Source of the DNA: a virus
Lineage: Duplodnaviria; Caudoviricetes
Strand: one strand, 5' to 3'
Length of the DNA: 46,834 bases
Virus record (IMG/VR): IMGVR_UViG_3300044296_000119
Coordinates: 1 to 46,834 of that record
Positions 25,100 through 44,693 of this stretch are shown piece by piece. The notes below the pieces were generated by a model. The model was given only the letters and a program-made list of their open reading frames with translations, made no database searches and was not told where the DNA came from. The position numbers and the translations under genes are program-made. Positions within the stretch are counted from its first letter, which is position 1. The number at the start of each line of letters is the position of its first letter.

Positions 25100-25956
25100 T
25101 AAGCTTTGCCTGTGTCCTGAGCGTAGGACATCAGTTCGAGATTGGAACCATTTACCCGGAACAGCAGAGCGTCTGTCTTACCAGCAGTGGCTGTCGGAGT
25201 GTATTGAGCTACGTTCTTGTAGTTGGCACCGAAGGCTACGGTGTTGGACGTAGTGAACGTGATGTAGATGGCAATATAGGTTTTGTCAGTGACAGCCGAG
25301 GGGTTGGCAATGGTGAACGTAGAGCCGTTGACATTAACAGTCCAATGCTGGCCTGCCGTAAAGTCGGAAGACGCACCACTCGTCAGAGCCTGATCGCTGG
25401 CCTTTTGCGTTCCAGTCCAAGCGTTCTTGCTGGCGAGGTTGACATCGAGGGTGGAACCCGTAACACCCAGTGTCGAACCAACTGTCAGCTCCGTCGGAGG
25501 AGAACCAGCTCCTGTAGCAGAGCTACCAAGGAGCTTGCTGTTGGCTGAGACATTTTGCATCTTGGCATAGGTCACTGCTCCATTAGCCAACTCTGTGGCA
25601 GTGATGGAACCAGCAGCTACTGTGGCAACAACCGACTGCCACGAAACAACCGTGCCATTTGTTCCTAGGAACTTTCCAGCATTGCCAGTCTGGGAAGGGA
25701 TGACGAGGGTGGAGACACCAAGCCCGCTTTGCAGATCGACAAGGCGAACAGCATCACTGGAGTTCACCGGGGATGCGAGGTTGATTAGCCTGTTGGAGTT
25801 CATATCCAACGTCGCACTCATAGTGTTGGGCGACGTCCCATCACGGGACAGGGTGTTGTCTATGGCTGCCGCGATTGCGGCGAAGTTGGCGTTGATGGTA
25901 GCTACAGAAGAGTAGCTACTAACAATTGTTGAAAGAGAGAGTTTGGCCATTCCCAC
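25099..25956 (-). CDS. Tail fibre / adaptor protein
   Basis: N.LSRDG..PN.M...LDMN..R..NL..P N-terminus; Q.G.AGKFL.TNG...SW. Confidence 0.7.
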   Translation of the reverse strand: MGMAKLSLSTIVSSYSSVATINANFAAIAAAIDNTLSRDGTSPNTMSATLDMNSNRLINLASPVNSSDAVRLVDLQSGLGVSTLVIPSQTGNAGKFLGTNGTVVSWQSVVATVAAGSITATELANGAVTYAKMQNVSANSKLLGSSATGAGSPPTELTVGSTLGVTGSTLDVNLASKNAWTGTQKASDQALTSGASSDFTAGQHWTVNVNGSTFTIANPSAVTDKTYIAIYITFTTSNTVAFGANYKNVAQYTPTATAGKTDALLFRVNGSNLELMSYAQDTGKA

Positions 25957-26027
25957 TTATTCTTATTGTTGGTGCAACACATGTTCCTAAGAACACGTTG
26001 CGTGGGTGAGAATGTGATTCTGAAAGC

Positions 26028-26054
26028 TTAGACAGCTAAATTTGAAAAAAGTTC
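26028..26054 (-). promoter_or_regulatory. SigmaE-type promoter at the head of the structural arm
   Basis: GAACTT-16 nt-TCTAA about 70 bp upstream of the first late gene. Confidence 0.7.
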
Positions 26055-26716
26055 AATTTGCTCCTTGCGTTCTATGGTTGGTGTTTAGTAAAGTCAGATT
26101 GTCACAATTGAGGGGTTGTGACAATTTTTGTTAGCGACTTTTAAGGTGCAAGTGCACTGTGAGCGTTGACCCCCTACCCCCTGGGGTGGGGTTGCCACGC
26201 ATTAGCTGCTAATAATTAATAATAAGATGTATATATATTAATAATAAGTTGTTCAGGGACTGTATATATGTTCTTAAGAACATTGGCATTAGAACCACTT
26301 CCCGCATATGTAGTTGTTATTAGTAGTTGTTGTTTATATTCAAGCAGCAACTGCTGTGCCAGCCGCCGTCCTTTAGGACGCCGTTCCAATTCGCCACCAA
26401 TAGCTTTAGCTATCCGATCAGGGTAGCTGGAGGGGTCTAGCAGCTATGCTGCTGACCCCCGGTAGTTGGGCGATCAGCCAAAAGTTGGCGTAAGCCAAAA
26501 GCCGTGCCAGAGCAGCTCAACATGTCTTTAGACACGTTGGTTGGAGCAGTGTTGCCGCTTGGCATGGTGGTTGCTACGCGCCCGCGCCGTTCTAAGAGCT
26601 TAAATAGCTTCTCGAATGACAACAGCTTTATCGTTGGCATGAGAGAAGCAAGCTCTTAGAACAATAAAAACCTTTCTCTTAGAGCATTAAAAGCTCTGCA
26701 CTCAGAAAGGTTCTAC

Positions 26717-26831
26717 CTCAAAGTCACATCTAGTTTCTCCTATAGGGGAAATTCACCCCCTACACGAAGTGAAGGGGGATGAATTCCCCCCAACAACATA
26801 GGAGAAACAAAAACCAGATGTGACATTTGAG
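26717..26831. repeat. Long imperfect inverted repeat
   Basis: CTCAAA, GTCACATCT, GTTTCTCCTAT, GGGGGAATTCA and CCCCCT each pair with mirrored blocks. Confidence 0.85.
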
Positions 26832-27596
26832 TGCAGAACCCAAAGGGCGGCCAGCGTCCTTCGGAATCGGCACTCACAGGGCGACAGCGCATCACTGTCG
26901 CTACGGAGAATTGGGCATGTGACCAGAGCACAACACAGCCTCACCACGGCGAAATTGGGTCGGCTCCAGCGGGAAGCGGAGCTAGCTGCCAGTCGAAAGA
27001 CTGCCACCAGCAGCAGGGTAAGTATCCCAACGTCTAGGTGTAGCCCAATGGGGCTAGTCGGAAAGTTGTGACGTTCCTAGGAACAAAATCGGGAATCGGC
27101 AGAACTGCCTCTCACACTCAGCGCAAACCACGTTCGATGGTTGCTGGCTGTGAAACAGAGCCGTGTAGCAATCCGTATTCTAGGTCGAGCATTCTGCTCA
27201 TGATAAGTCGTCGCAATCATCCGGCTGGCTTTGTCCGAAAGGACTTAGGGACGGAAGGTGAGCGAAAAAGTGCGACATCGCTACCCTGCATAGCAGGTTC
27301 AACGTAAGCCTTCCCACAAGTGATGTTTGCTTGTGAAAGCGGACATGTTCCCACTCGACTAGTCATCTGCGATGACATTTGAACGAGTCCGCTTCCTCAA
27401 GCGAACGGAGGTTGTATGCAAATGCGAGGCAAGCCAGTGAAGGTGAGCGGTATACACGACAACGTCTACCGGGACACCCGACGTAAGTCGGATCGTCCAC
27501 GCTACTGGTCGTGGCAACCGCCCAAGCGTAGCAAATGTGTGCGAATACCTGTCAGCCAATACTTGGCTGAACAGCAGCAGTCCGTGGCCTAGCACG
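26828..27596 (+). ncRNA. Candidate large structured non-coding RNA (family unassigned, ends approximate)
   Basis: Continuous nested helices, GNRA tetraloops and G-U pairs on the plus strand, no credible ORF. Confidence 0.65.
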
Positions 27597-27625
27597 TTCC
27601 TAGGAACATCATCAGGAGAGCACGA

Positions 27626-28114
27626 ATGAACGAACAATTCAAAGCGGCAGTGCTTGCGGTGAAATCGCTGGACAAAAAGACGGGTGGCCTATGGCGTGCC
27701 CTCGTGCAGTTCATCTGCACGGACAGCGAACCCGTTGCCAAAGGCGAAGCCAAAGGCACGGACATGAAGCCGGTGTTCAAAGCGGCGGAGCAAACCGCAT
27801 TGGCTGAGATGAAAGTCAAGATGGCGGACAACTCCACCTATCGCGTGCAGAAGAACCTGATCTGCAACTGCGTGAAGGCGGGCATCGCACTGATGGACGA
27901 GAAGGGCCAGCCGCGTGGCAAGTCCGAGCTGGAAGCGGAGCTGGACGAAACCAAGGTGCCGAAGACCGAGCTTGAGAAGTTCAAGCTCGCAGTGAACACG
28001 CTCACCAACATCGGCAAGAAACTCGATGCAAGCGAGCGCCTCATTGCCACCGCATTGGTGAGCGATGTGCTGAAGGACATGACTGCCAGCATGGAACTGA
28101 AGGCGGCAGCCTAA
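27626..28114 (+). CDS. Hypothetical early protein (paralogue of 31468-31995)
   Basis: AGGAG RBS, first gene of the arm. Confidence 0.8.
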   Translation: MNEQFKAAVLAVKSLDKKTGGLWRALVQFICTDSEPVAKGEAKGTDMKPVFKAAEQTALAEMKVKMADNSTYRVQKNLICNCVKAGIALMDEKGQPRGKSELEAELDETKVPKTELEKFKLAVNTLTNIGKKLDASERLIATALVSDVLKDMTASMELKAAA

Positions 28115-28131
28115 CAGGTAACGAGTGAGAG

Positions 28132-28202
28132 GGCTGCGTAGTTTAAAGGGAGAACTCCGCCCATTAGGGGCGGCAGTGCGGGTTCGATTCCCGCCGCACC
28201 TC
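28132..28202 (+). tRNA. tRNA-like element with TTA at the anticodon position (pseudo-tRNA or suppressor)
   Basis: D-arm, CCGCC-CATTAGG-GGCGG arm, GCGGG-TTCGATT-CCCGC T-arm; C-C acceptor mismatch, A33, no CCA. Confidence 0.55.
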
Positions 28203-28222
28203 TAATTACAGGAGCATGAACG

Positions 28223-28441
28223 ATGAACCTGATTGATCTGCCACCCGCAGACAAGGGTAGCGCAGTGGAAGACACGGACTCTCCCCATGCCACGCATTGG
28301 CTGATGCGGACACGAGAAGGCACGGAGTTCGTGACCAAGCACCGCTATACATGGGAGCAAGTGCAAAACTGGGAGTGCAGCGAACCTGTGATGCCTCTGA
28401 CTGCATCCATGCTCCCGTGCGCGAAGACCAACCGTTCCTAG
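28223..28441 (+). CDS. Hypothetical protein
   Basis: AGGAG upstream, operon position. Confidence 0.5.
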   Translation: MNLIDLPPADKGSAVEDTDSPHATHWLMRTREGTEFVTKHRYTWEQVQNWECSEPVMPLTASMLPCAKTNRS

Positions 28442-28463
28442 GAACAACTTAGCAAGGGAGCAT

Positions 28464-28661
28464 GTGATGTTCGAGCAATTGGATGGCAAGACCAAGGCAG
28501 TGACTGAGCGGCGCTATTCAAAACTATTGGAGCACGACTACAACCATGTGCTCTTGTCCAGTGAAGAGCGCAGCGTCTGTGACATCTGCCGCAAGCGGAA
28601 GCACACCACGGTGAATGGCGTGTGTCTCGACTGCGCCATGAGCAAGAAGCGTGTTCACTAA
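28464..28661 (+). CDS. Small zinc-finger protein
   Basis: CDIC...CLDC; GGGAG RBS. Confidence 0.6.
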   Translation: MMFEQLDGKTKAVTERRYSKLLEHDYNHVLLSSEERSVCDICRKRKHTTVNGVCLDCAMSKKRVH

Positions 28662-28672
28662 GGGAGATACGA

Positions 28673-28894
28673 ATGGCCAAGCAGAAAGGCAGCGCAAAGA
28701 TCGGACGCAGCAAGCGTTCCCCTTCCCACTCCTACTACAACTCGGTAAAGAAAGCCGAGTTCAACAAAGCACGTAACGTGGAGAAGGAGAAGGCACGTCA
28801 GGACAAGGCGAAGAACAAGCACATCGCTGTGCCTCGTGGCACTGCCCGTGCCAAGCGCCGCGCTGCATTGCAACCTGTAAGGGAGGCAGCGTGA
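28673..28894 (+). CDS. Small highly basic protein
   Basis: GGGAG RBS, MAKQKGSAK..., Lys/Arg-rich. Confidence 0.65.
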   Translation: MAKQKGSAKIGRSKRSPSHSYYNSVKKAEFNKARNVEKEKARQDKAKNKHIAVPRGTARAKRRAALQPVREAA

Positions 28895-35362: not shown

Positions 35363-35526
35363 TGGCTAAGTGGTTGTGTAAAGAGTTCGATGAAGAGTTT
35401 GTTATTGAGGCAGCGACTCAAGCAGAGGCTGCTGTTGCTGCTCGGATATATGGCGGCAGGGTGATTGGTGAAGTAAAGGATGACGATGGGCAAGAGAGCA
35501 CCGCTGAGTTCTCAACATCCCGCTGA
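35362..35526 (+). CDS. Hypothetical protein (54 aa)
   Basis: GGAG RBS, TGATG coupling; absent from the ORF track. Confidence 0.5.
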   Translation: MAKWLCKEFDEEFVIEAATQAEAAVAARIYGGRVIGEVKDDDGQESTAEFSTSR

Positions 35527-36490
35527 GCGGGTCTACTGGAAGAACGGTGCATTCCACTACGTTGACAAGAGCAACAAGTGGCACCGCTTAGGTGAGCACT
35601 GGGACAGGGGTGCACGAGAGAAATGGGCTTCCCTCTCCACCCTTGCTCCCGGTGCAGGCACTGTTGCCCAGATGTTGGACAACTACCTCGACTACCTCCG
35701 TGCTGAGAAAGCACGGGGTGCAATGAGTGCACGTCACGTTGAAGATAGAGAGCGTGACGCTGCCATGCTGAACAGAATGTTCGGCAAGATGGACAAGCTG
35801 AAGGTGCGACGTGAACATGTCGCCCTATATCTAAAGAACAGGACGGACAAAGATGGCAACCATGCGCCAGTCAGGGCCAACAGAGAAGTGAGTTTACTAA
35901 GTGCTGCCTTCAATCGGGACGTCACTGTTGACGTCAATCCCTGTCTCGGCGTTCCTAGGAACAAAGAACATGGAAGAGAGCGTTACGTCGAAGGGTGGGA
36001 GCTGCGAAGGTTTGCCAAGCGATGCTGTCCCCCTTGGCTCCGTGGATATATTCTCATCAAATACCTCACCGGGTTACGTATGGCTGACATGCTTAGGCTG
36101 CACGATCCGGCTGAAGGTGAGCGAGGACTTGTCGTCCGAATCGGTAAGAGTAGAAAGCGTAAGGTTTTGGAATTCAGATGGACATGGGCGTTACGAACCG
36201 CAGTTGGATTCGTTCGTAATGTTAGGCACGGACAAGCTGGCGGAGTTGCACCAGACCTACGACCACTCTTCGGGATTACCCCATCGGGCCTTAAAAGTGC
36301 ATGGCGTAGAGCCTGCGCCAAGTGGGCCGCACAGGGGAATACTCCGTTCTGGGAGCATGACATTCGAGGCAAAACCGGAAGCGACTCTAAGACACTCACC
36401 GATGCACAGCATCGACTGGGACACGATAGGTCTACTACCACCGCTCGGCATTACCGACGAGGTGTTAGTAAAGTCGATAGCCTCAGATAA
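35480..36490 (+). CDS. int: Tyrosine integrase
   Basis: TGLR.ADML, HDIR, LGH and HY catalytic residues. Confidence 0.9.
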   Translation: MTMGKRAPLSSQHPAERVYWKNGAFHYVDKSNKWHRLGEHWDRGAREKWASLSTLAPGAGTVAQMLDNYLDYLRAEKARGAMSARHVEDRERDAAMLNRMFGKMDKLKVRREHVALYLKNRTDKDGNHAPVRANREVSLLSAAFNRDVTVDVNPCLGVPRNKEHGRERYVEGWELRRFAKRCCPPWLRGYILIKYLTGLRMADMLRLHDPAEGERGLVVRIGKSRKRKVLEFRWTWALRTAVGFVRNVRHGQAGGVAPDLRPLFGITPSGLKSAWRRACAKWAAQGNTPFWEHDIRGKTGSDSKTLTDAQHRLGHDRSTTTARHYRRGVSKVDSLR

Positions 36491-44217: not shown

Positions 44218-44329
44218 ACACGAGCTGGTTGACCTGCTCGAACTCACTGTTGATGACATCCTAGATCGGTTTGCTGACCGACTCCTTGAATTCAAGGAAC
44301 GGTTTGGTGTTGTCGATCCTGATGACTAA
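44171..44329 (+). CDS. Hypothetical acidic protein (52 aa)
   Basis: DE..LVDLLEL..DDI.DRF.D pattern; fills the gap between genes. Confidence 0.55.
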   Translation: MRLQELKDVASRQADEHELVDLLELTVDDILDRFADRLLEFKERFGVVDPDD

Positions 44330-44693
44330 ACGCAACGGTGGGTTGTGGACAGAGTCTCGCTTCAAGTCGTTCGTCATTAGCAAGCTGCGGGCCGGTCTAA
44401 GGTGGTGGCCTCCGAAGTTTCGTGTTCTTAAGAACGCTGCAACGGAGCGCCGCATCAACCCCAAGTCCGGCAAGCTTGCCATGCACTATCGCTGCGCTAA
44501 ATGCAAAGGCGAGTTCCCACTCAAAGAAGTCCAAGTCGATCACAAGCAACCTGTCGTTGACACCAAGACTGGCTTCGTCAGTTGGGATGTCTACGTCGAA
44601 CGCATGTTCGTTGAAGACAAAGCACTACAGGTCTTGTGCAAACCATGCCACAAAAATAAAAGCGACAAAGAAAGAGCGCAACGACGTGGATAA
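44322..44693 (+). CDS. HNH endonuclease
   Basis: Y.CAKC, VQVDH..P, LQVLC..CH..K. Confidence 0.8.
   Translation: MTKRNGGLWTESRFKSFVISKLRAGLRWWPPKFRVLKNAATERRINPKSGKLAMHYRCAKCKGEFPLKEVQVDHKQPVVDTKTGFVSWDVYVERMFVEDKALQVLCKPCHKNKSDKERAQRRG

Follow-up and report, generated by a model that had tools for sequence, protein, structure and literature searches.

The early operon of a freshwater phage is headed by an uncatalogued, covarying plus-strand RNA structure of ∼570 nt (26846–27415). The window, that is, the whole stretch of DNA analysed, is a complete 46.8-kb virus record of 46,834 nucleotides. The first-pass annotation had drawn a 770-nt stand-alone non-coding RNA across 26828–27596. The structured RNA is real, but it is shorter than claimed and not ORF-free to its end. 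The proposed 5′ border falls within the right arm of a longer hairpin (26695–26841), ∼180 nt at the 3′ end are protein-coding, and no plus-strand terminator separates the RNA from the early genes. The broader claim of a structured plus-strand RNA outside Rfam has held, on the strength of the strand bias of its tetraloops, an independent covariance-model match and covarying helices.

The phage is approximately placed as Zobellviridae-like (SIO1/cobavirus-related) by capsid homology, with a major capsid protein ∼50% identical to those of SIO1 and ICBM1, and by its division into a replication and a structural arm. Structural (late) genes occupy the minus strand up to 25956, and plus-strand replication and metabolism genes run from 27416 onward, including a CobT/CobS-like pair, an integrase-like protein, primase, helicase, DNA polymerase and ribonucleotide reductase. 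No RNA polymerase was matched among the 47 ORFs scanned in the window. Phages of the SIO1/cobavirus type are described, in the accessible part of the source, as having two arms with direct terminal repeats at their outer ends (PMC6775973). Since cobaviruses carry their repeats at this place, the divergent gap 25957–27415 probably holds the physical genome ends; the contigs of two relatives end within it. Non-coding motifs at 26040–26200 and 26290–26400 (a GC-rich run, ACCACTTCCC...TAGTTGTTGTT) are common to the relatives L002, L013, L014, L015 and L019 and are probably the terminal repeat and origin region.

Several other features of the genome were recorded. The integrase-like tyrosine recombinase (35480–36490; phrog_1, E 7e-19) is present despite the lytic, T7-like layout, and no prophage relative was found in genome contigs. 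An HNH endonuclease ORF (44271–44693) overlaps the start of the ribonucleotide reductase frame in another frame, and the early arm holds a second ORF that is small and very basic (28673–28894, 73 aa), without a Pfam match. The tRNA gene at 28131–28203 is assigned an ochre-reading TTA anticodon by ARAGORN and scores 44 bits in Rfam with an odd anticodon arm. Because TAA is the commonest stop codon (26 of 40 genes), recoding is a less plausible reading than a mis-set anticodon or a tRNA-like decoy.

The second early gene (27626–28114, plus strand) served as synteny anchor for collecting relatives. It encodes an all-helical 162-aa protein whose family has 120 representatives at E≤0.001 and whose structural model is confident (pLDDT 91). 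Its fold matches were significant only to uncharacterised or unnamed viral proteins, and comparison with solved folds gave nothing clear (best Z 6.0). A profile of this family retrieved 7 viral and 11 metagenome loci. Five of these 18 carry a long leader and represent four distinct phages, L019, L020, L012/L013 and L014; L015/L021 and L022 have a short leader, and the remaining loci are distant or lack context. A further 80 loci, reached with a profile of the first late gene, comprised duplicates and the short-leader L033 and L046, with zero new long leaders. Zero matches were returned by tblastn of the 162-aa protein and by blastn of 26700–27700 against 50,697 phage records, and genome contigs searched for its gene held no relative. 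Each of 16 pattern matches in genome contigs lacked the other motifs, and scans of viral contigs by a single protein or motif gave few or no relatives. Sequences from four DNA sequencing runs were near-identical, with zero variants in the block, and therefore supplied no extra covariation; among the runs listed as containing the sequence, none was of RNA.

Folding of 26828–27596 yielded −301 kcal/mol, with z-scores of −4.47 (plus) and −3.17 (minus) against 20 dinucleotide shuffles each. For the non-coding block as now delimited, the plus/minus values are −3.3/−2.9 in the window, −2.6/−1.5 in L019, −2.4/−2.0 in L020, −3.1/−2.1 in L013 and −4.0/−3.9 in L014, the plus strand being only slightly better in the window, L020 and L014. 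The plus-strand preference put forward earlier was supported by GNRA/UUCG hairpins with stems of at least 4 bp. Seven such hairpins occur on the plus strand of 26828–27596, against 0.59 expected (0 of 500 shuffles), and one on the minus strand (0.52 expected). Two of the seven overlap each other and three lie in or on the small ORF described below; the non-coding block by itself has four on the plus strand against 0.39 expected (0/500). The background over the 46.8-kb genome is 36 on the plus and 46 on the minus strand, and the excess is not significant in any single relative.

No Rfam 15 model matched the block in a search of the window at gathering score. Searches at E≤10 over 26000–28400 and 26840–27420 gave no family for it either, and searches at E≤5 returned nothing in L013, L014, L019, L020 or the distant relative L028. 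The literature searched, outside which most subscription papers lie, contained no description of the block motif, and no match occurred in six supplementary files of a large viral structured-RNA screen, whose files 1, 2 and 4, outside that search, could hold it (PMC10690425). L028 has, at 1830–2735, its own ∼550-nt non-coding leader with GAAA loops, which matches neither Rfam nor the covariance model described below; it also carries several sigma-70-like promoters and a variant palindrome, CTCTTAAGAG.

Homology among the long leaders is patchy. Local alignments made free of a recurrent palindrome (see below) were better than all 200 shuffles for window–L019, L019–L020 and L020–L013, and L019–L013 was matched by 3/200; the other six pairs were not significant. 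The L014 leader has no significant sequence homology (12/200 shuffles at best). What homology can be aligned is found mainly in the 5′ and middle parts of the block; much of the 3′ half has none. There, a GAAA hairpin (27233–27244) and the multibranch domain P8 (27253–59/27308–14) are predicted on the plus strand (27233–27314) with pair probabilities of 0.78 and 0.98, and L019 has a closed domain at the equivalent place, a likeness of position.

The conserved core begins with the P1/P2 domain (26942–27040, plus strand), in which 26942–45 pairs with 27037–40 and, across a 2×2 internal loop, 26948–51 with 27031–34. It encloses variable hairpins, including the GAAA hairpin at 26990–27003. This 4-2-4 architecture occurs once each in the window, L019, L020 and L013, and arose in 35, 56, 26 and 53 of 2000 shuffles, respectively. 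P1/P2 is placed identically by the covariance model R1 and appears in both the minimum-free-energy (MFE) and the centroid structure once the upstream hairpin H1 is excluded. Changes within it either replace both bases of a pair (C-G/U-A/A-U at one position in P2, G-U/C-G at a second) or remain G-U-compatible on the plus strand. Because L019 and L020 share one arm, they are not independent for P1/P2.

The P3 hairpin (27041–27056, plus strand) follows, and its 3′ strand can swap to extend P4. An equivalent hairpin with a competing extension is present in L019, L020 and, by inspection, L013. In the window, L019 and L020 the predicted P3 and extended P4 use a common strand, which suggests a conserved strand exchange. 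The P4–P5–P6 domain (27048–27234, plus strand) is formed by 27048–62/27220–34, 27065–73/27209–17 and 27076–82/27178–84. P4 has 15 bp, six of them G-U, and differs in sequence in each phage. In an anchored test on the plus strand, duplexes as strong as P4 arose in 5, 59, 138 and 14 of 1000 shuffles for the window, L019, L020 and L013, the best duplex in L020 differing from the assigned one; the test was negative in L014 (752/1000). P5+P6 is weak singly, with 84, 76, 130 and 259 of 1000 shuffles as strong in the same four phages. All of these helix tests were designed after inspection of the sequences.

The covariance model R1 was built from L019 and L020 only, and its top match was the window at 26940–27086 (38.3 bits; rough E 1.9e-8), the next best of 32 matches in 114 kb scoring 18.9 bits. 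The L013 core scored 18.1 bits in the same helix register, no better than palindrome-only matches, and the L014 block was undetected by R1. Over 60 of the 80 late-gene loci, with duplicates and loci with little upstream DNA omitted, the best score was 15.1 bits. Between L019 and L020, 23 of 23 pairs are kept with four double and two single changes. P1 and P2 covary in four phages; the pair counts were matched by 23/500 shuffles for L019 against L020 and by 58/500 for a four-sequence MAFFT alignment in which L013 is misaligned. The core has only three firm homologues (the window, L019 and L020) and one probable homologue (L013), and its base-pairing is conserved by compensatory changes in related phages.

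All eight hairpins and six long-range pairings named in the first-pass annotation are complementary where they were placed (14/14). The six long-range helices can thus form, but four of them (26929–34/27065–70, 27225–31/27431–37, 27180–86/27586–92 and 27175–80/27543–48) compete with helices supported in relatives and find no support there themselves, and three of the four pair into coding sequence. It could be argued from the modest z-scores, the weak single-helix tests and the small number of homologues that pairing is incidental, the block being untranslated, GC-rich spacer sequence with no real structure beyond local hairpins. We regard this as highly improbable in the face of the independent model match, the 4-2-4 architecture in 4/4 phages and the tetraloop excess.

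Within the core, at 27073–27084, lies one copy of a 12-bp palindrome, GTTCYTARGAAC, which P6 uses and which occupies the same relative place in L019, L020 and L013. The palindrome occurs in 31 exact copies in the window, from 162 to 45395, and in 33 copies with at most one mismatch against 0.26 expected. Its mean spacing of 1.5 kb is more even than random (CV 0.63; 47 of 10,000), 20 of the 31 copies lie inside listed genes, and it recurs in 26 of 32 loci examined. It resembles a docking site, spread over the whole genome, for a dimeric protein; the literature searched held no description of it. A palindrome-plus-P1 pattern hit 34 loci, in which the core was present only in two L013-type copies.

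Upstream of the block are two promoter-like sites of the sigma-54 (−24/−12) type, scored against the consensus TGGCAC-N5-TTGCW. One, at 26346–26361 on the minus strand, faces the late arm, and the other, at 26560–26575 on the plus strand, faces the early arm and predicts a transcript start near 26586. Both are putative promoters matching 11 of 12 consensus positions, and they are two of only three sites of this quality in the window. Same-sense sites at 11–12/12 occupy the same gap in L002, L012/L013, L015, L022, L033, L039, L050 and L051; L019 has no plus-sense site at ≥10/12 and L014 only one at 10/12. Divergent sites of this type cluster in the terminal gap family-wide, up to four per phage (L015, 3158–3253; L022, 979–1293; L019, 2920–3100). 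Sigma-54 requires an enhancer-binding activator, according to the portions available of PMC8657755 and PMC4428206.

Directly behind the predicted start is H0, a long imperfect hairpin (26589–26662, plus strand) with z-scores of −7.3 (plus) and −7.0 (minus). A hairpin occurs at this place in all six phages folded, with equal or better energy on the plus strand in each. It is followed by H1 (26695–26841), a 60-bp branched hairpin that is assigned to the minus strand (z −10.2 plus, −11.6 minus) and consists of one arm with two tandem alternative partner copies, a T run lying behind each on the minus strand. H1 has more G-U pairs on the minus than on the plus strand in the window (6/1), L019 (4/1), L020 (4/1), L014 (7/0), L013 (3/1) and L015 (4/0), and its energy is lower on the minus strand in five of six phages, with one tie. 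Its arm motifs are conserved in four of five aligned leaders; a pattern made from the arm gave three matches, one being L014 again and two lying in unrelated context. A TGCACT word resembling that of H1 is also found near 26153, in the conserved terminal motif. On its minus-strand preference, H1 was rejected as a 5′ domain of the plus-strand RNA, and it is read as an antisense-terminator-like hairpin, or as one acting at the level of single-stranded DNA, outside the plus-strand core.

These properties bear on the idea that the entire block is a DNA-level structure near the genome end, single-stranded or cruciform and concerned with ejection, replication or duplication of the terminal repeat, or else the decayed remains of a mobile or intron element. 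Cobaviruses have their terminal repeats in this gap, in the available text of PMC6775973, and the contigs of two relatives end in it; H0 and H1 fold on both strands, and the block includes a copy of the genome-wide palindrome. In the block, however, both the GNRA loops and the helices rich in G-U pairs favour plus-strand RNA, and against a relic or intron there is no Rfam intron match and a simple screen for group II domain V was empty in 6/6 leaders. We therefore hold this explanation to be quite unlikely for the block, while for H1 alone a DNA-level reading may apply.

The claim that the region has no credible ORF did not survive. The first early gene (27416–27592, plus strand) lies within it, encoding a 58-aa Arg/Lys-rich protein (13 K+R against 4 D+E) with a W-x-W-x-P motif, and has a GGAGG ribosome-binding site five bases upstream (27407–27411). 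Basic ORFs of 53–61 aa occupy the same place in L019, L020 and L013, and in L014 a 72-aa small ORF is placed in front of the block, so that the order is swapped. The five proteins have in common an Arg/Lys-rich stretch and a Trp motif, which takes the form W-x-W-x-P in four of them, and when 72 candidates were searched with a profile of the five, 14 proteins, counting those of the query set, reached E≤0.001. The 58-aa protein has no Pfam family, gives only sub-0.9 leads in the ESM Atlas, and is modelled at low confidence as mostly unstructured (pLDDT 67, pTM 0.23). A codon-position test over 18 codons was mildly informative, with a third-position excess for the window against L019 only; the case for coding is based on protein-level homology and the ribosome-binding site. 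Three of the hairpins (27412–27427, 27478–27491 and 27552–27570) overlap the ORF, and L020 has an equivalent of the GUAA hairpin at 27478–27491 in which the stem differs. RNA structure may thus overlap the small gene, although Arg-Lys codons alone supply the GUAA loop.

A long hairpin (27316–27415, plus strand; long-stem pair probabilities 0.93–0.98) runs up to the small ORF's ribosome-binding site and ends on it; L019, L020 and L013 likewise have a long hairpin abutting this site, which makes 4/4 phages of the main layout. In predicted ensembles the initiation region is largely paired in the window, L019 and L013 and partly paired in L020 and L014, with partners that differ between phages. 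A complementary strand lies just 5′ of a GACAUAA-like motif in the window, L019 and L013 (matched by 22, 18 and 56 of 700 controls); the motif is absent from L020, and L014 fails the complementary-strand test. The small ORF accompanies the long block in 5/5 long-leader phages. The block is missing altogether from the short-leader L015/L021, L022, L033 and L046, and G006, a complete short-leader genome, has neither block nor small ORF; G007 has only an E 0.001 match to the small protein, lacking the motif.

The block lies downstream of the promoter-like site and ahead of the first early gene. Because no plus-strand terminator was found in a scan of 25900–28500, it is continuous with the early genes, and by its position behind the sigma-54-type site it is therefore a 5′ leader. 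Given also the hairpin abutting the ribosome-binding site, the paired initiation region and the co-occurrence of block and small ORF, we favour, with a confidence just short of even, a cis-acting leader of the first early transcript that restricts how much of the small basic protein is translated and serves as its binding site. In such a scheme, while the genome end is entering the cell, host RNA polymerase would initiate near 26586, at the sigma-54-type site, and in the transcript H0 would fold ahead of the core. Most of the 58-aa gene's initiation region would be paired, and the P3/P4 strand exchange would provide two states. Binding of the basic peptide to the leader would then shift the equilibrium between them, giving feedback akin to that of lambda N, which represses its own translation from ∼200 nt upstream within a structured leader, as described in the accessible text of PMC5725501. 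Points against a leader gate include the small ORF of L014, which precedes the block, an order for which a gate acting purely in cis on translation offers no explanation, and the length of ∼570 nt, which exceeds the structure needed for translational gating.

The same two features lend weight to the proposal that the block represents a new class of stand-alone ornate RNA, excised from the early transcript at the flanking hairpins in an RNase III-like manner and acting in trans, possibly within a particle that also holds the small basic protein. The proposal is kept alive by the swapped order in L014, the all-or-none presence expected of an accessory module and the size of the block, to which its multibranch fold, GNRA loops and long flanking duplexes may be added, with GOLLD and ROOL as phage precedents (PMC12286853, in the part available). 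The lack of a plus-strand terminator tells against it, as do the continuation of hairpins into coding sequence, a last hairpin that always ends on a ribosome-binding site, the preference of upstream H1 for the other strand, and patchy conservation with a largely unalignable 3′ half, unlike the conserved 3′ region of GOLLD. We consider a stand-alone RNA a serious proposal, though rather unlikely. A similarly subdued chance attaches to its fullest form, in which the block founds a new class of large phage RNAs, made first on infection from the sigma-54 promoter, excised, assembled into a ribonucleoprotein with the W-x-W-x-P peptide and carried as an accessory module by some Zobellviridae-like phages while absent from others.

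The leader, through H0, the core or both, might instead act as a processive antiterminator for the ∼21-kb early arm, alone in the manner of HK022 put or with the small protein in the manner of lambda N. The absence of a phage RNA polymerase among the scanned ORFs, the position of H0 directly behind the predicted start in 6/6 phages, the depletion of sigma-70-like promoters in the early arm (3 against 12.5 expected) and the basic, mostly unstructured nature predicted for the small protein are in keeping with this possibility. However, the early arm has about as many intrinsic terminators as chance predicts (23 on both strands against 19.2), and short-leader relatives transcribe the same arm without the block. 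A narrow GAA[A/G]AG screen for boxB was empty in 6/6 leaders; boxB loops vary between phages, and GNRA tetraloop hairpins are present. A boxA-like word, by the consensus taken from the part available of PMC5725501, occurs only in the window (26652) among the four main-layout leaders, and the match in L014 is the palindrome itself. Since boxA is not conserved and early-arm terminators are at chance, antitermination ranks below the cis-acting leader, and we judge it decidedly unlikely. The regulatory leader that the first-pass annotation gave as its alternative, in the form of an antiterminator, fits the anatomy better than the RNA it preferred, but a lambda-type nut site is not conserved.

How T7-like podoviruses without an RNA polymerase of their own start and tune early expression has been little studied. 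The present locus brings together, as one unit, a putative sigma-54-type promoter, a covarying leader with a predicted strand exchange and, travelling with this leader, a small basic protein, and its RNA motif is absent from Rfam 15. As a regulatory leader, the block would carry N-like feedback into a remote phage group, and do so through a far larger RNA that lacks a nut site. As a released RNA, it would represent a new ornate class whose protein partner is named, unlike ROOL, for which the available part of PMC12286853 gives no identified partner.

Among known systems, GOLLD and ROOL were rejected because neither the window nor the relatives match their Rfam covariance models, and the membership suggested earlier is not supported (no match at gathering score or at E≤10). 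The block resembles them in being large, multibranched and phage-encoded, with a tRNA gene ∼700 nt downstream; GOLLD and ROOL too often lie near tRNA genes, a feature that is not specific. Their hallmarks include an abundant, discrete transcript that assembles into an RNA-only nanocage. GOLLD has a 3′ region conserved in all its members and is often over 800 nt long, according to the accessible text of PMC12286853. The block, in contrast, is ∼570 nt long with homology mainly in its 5′ and middle parts and no GOLLD-type conserved 3′ region; it is contiguous with coding sequence, lacks a terminator, has a poorly conserved 3′ half, and is known from a handful of genomes only. Group I and II introns were likewise rejected, there being no Rfam intron match and no domain V-like expression in 6/6 leaders, a result that covers recognisable forms.

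The early leader of T7 resembles the present one in lying at a non-coding left end of a phage of a related supergroup and in having long imperfect hairpins before ribosome-binding sites. The T7 leader carries RNase III processing hairpins. It differs in that here a conserved multibranch core lies between the hairpins, no phage RNA polymerase was found and processing is hypothetical. HK022 put is ∼70 nt long, has two short stems and needs no phage protein; the likeness is to H0, as stem-loops directly behind an early promoter, and the difference is that the present leader is without any Rfam match. Lambda N is a small Arg-rich RNA-binding protein, and the first gene product here, which has no sequence family match, is likewise small, basic and, by prediction, largely unstructured, which is a likeness only. 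The lambda pL–nutL–N region shares with the present locus a structured early-operon leader, a small basic first gene whose product is a candidate RNA binder, and, as predicted here, the use of host RNA polymerase. It differs in the size of the RNA, a leader of ∼200 nt in lambda against a ∼570-nt multibranch block and two long hairpins here, and the present locus has no conserved boxA, no boxB-like loop by the narrow screen used, a putative promoter of the sigma-54 rather than the sigma-70 type, a family-less W-x-W-x-P peptide and a T7-like podovirus layout. Set beside these systems, the block would appear closest in action to the early regulatory leaders of phages, although it is neither a nut nor a put element.
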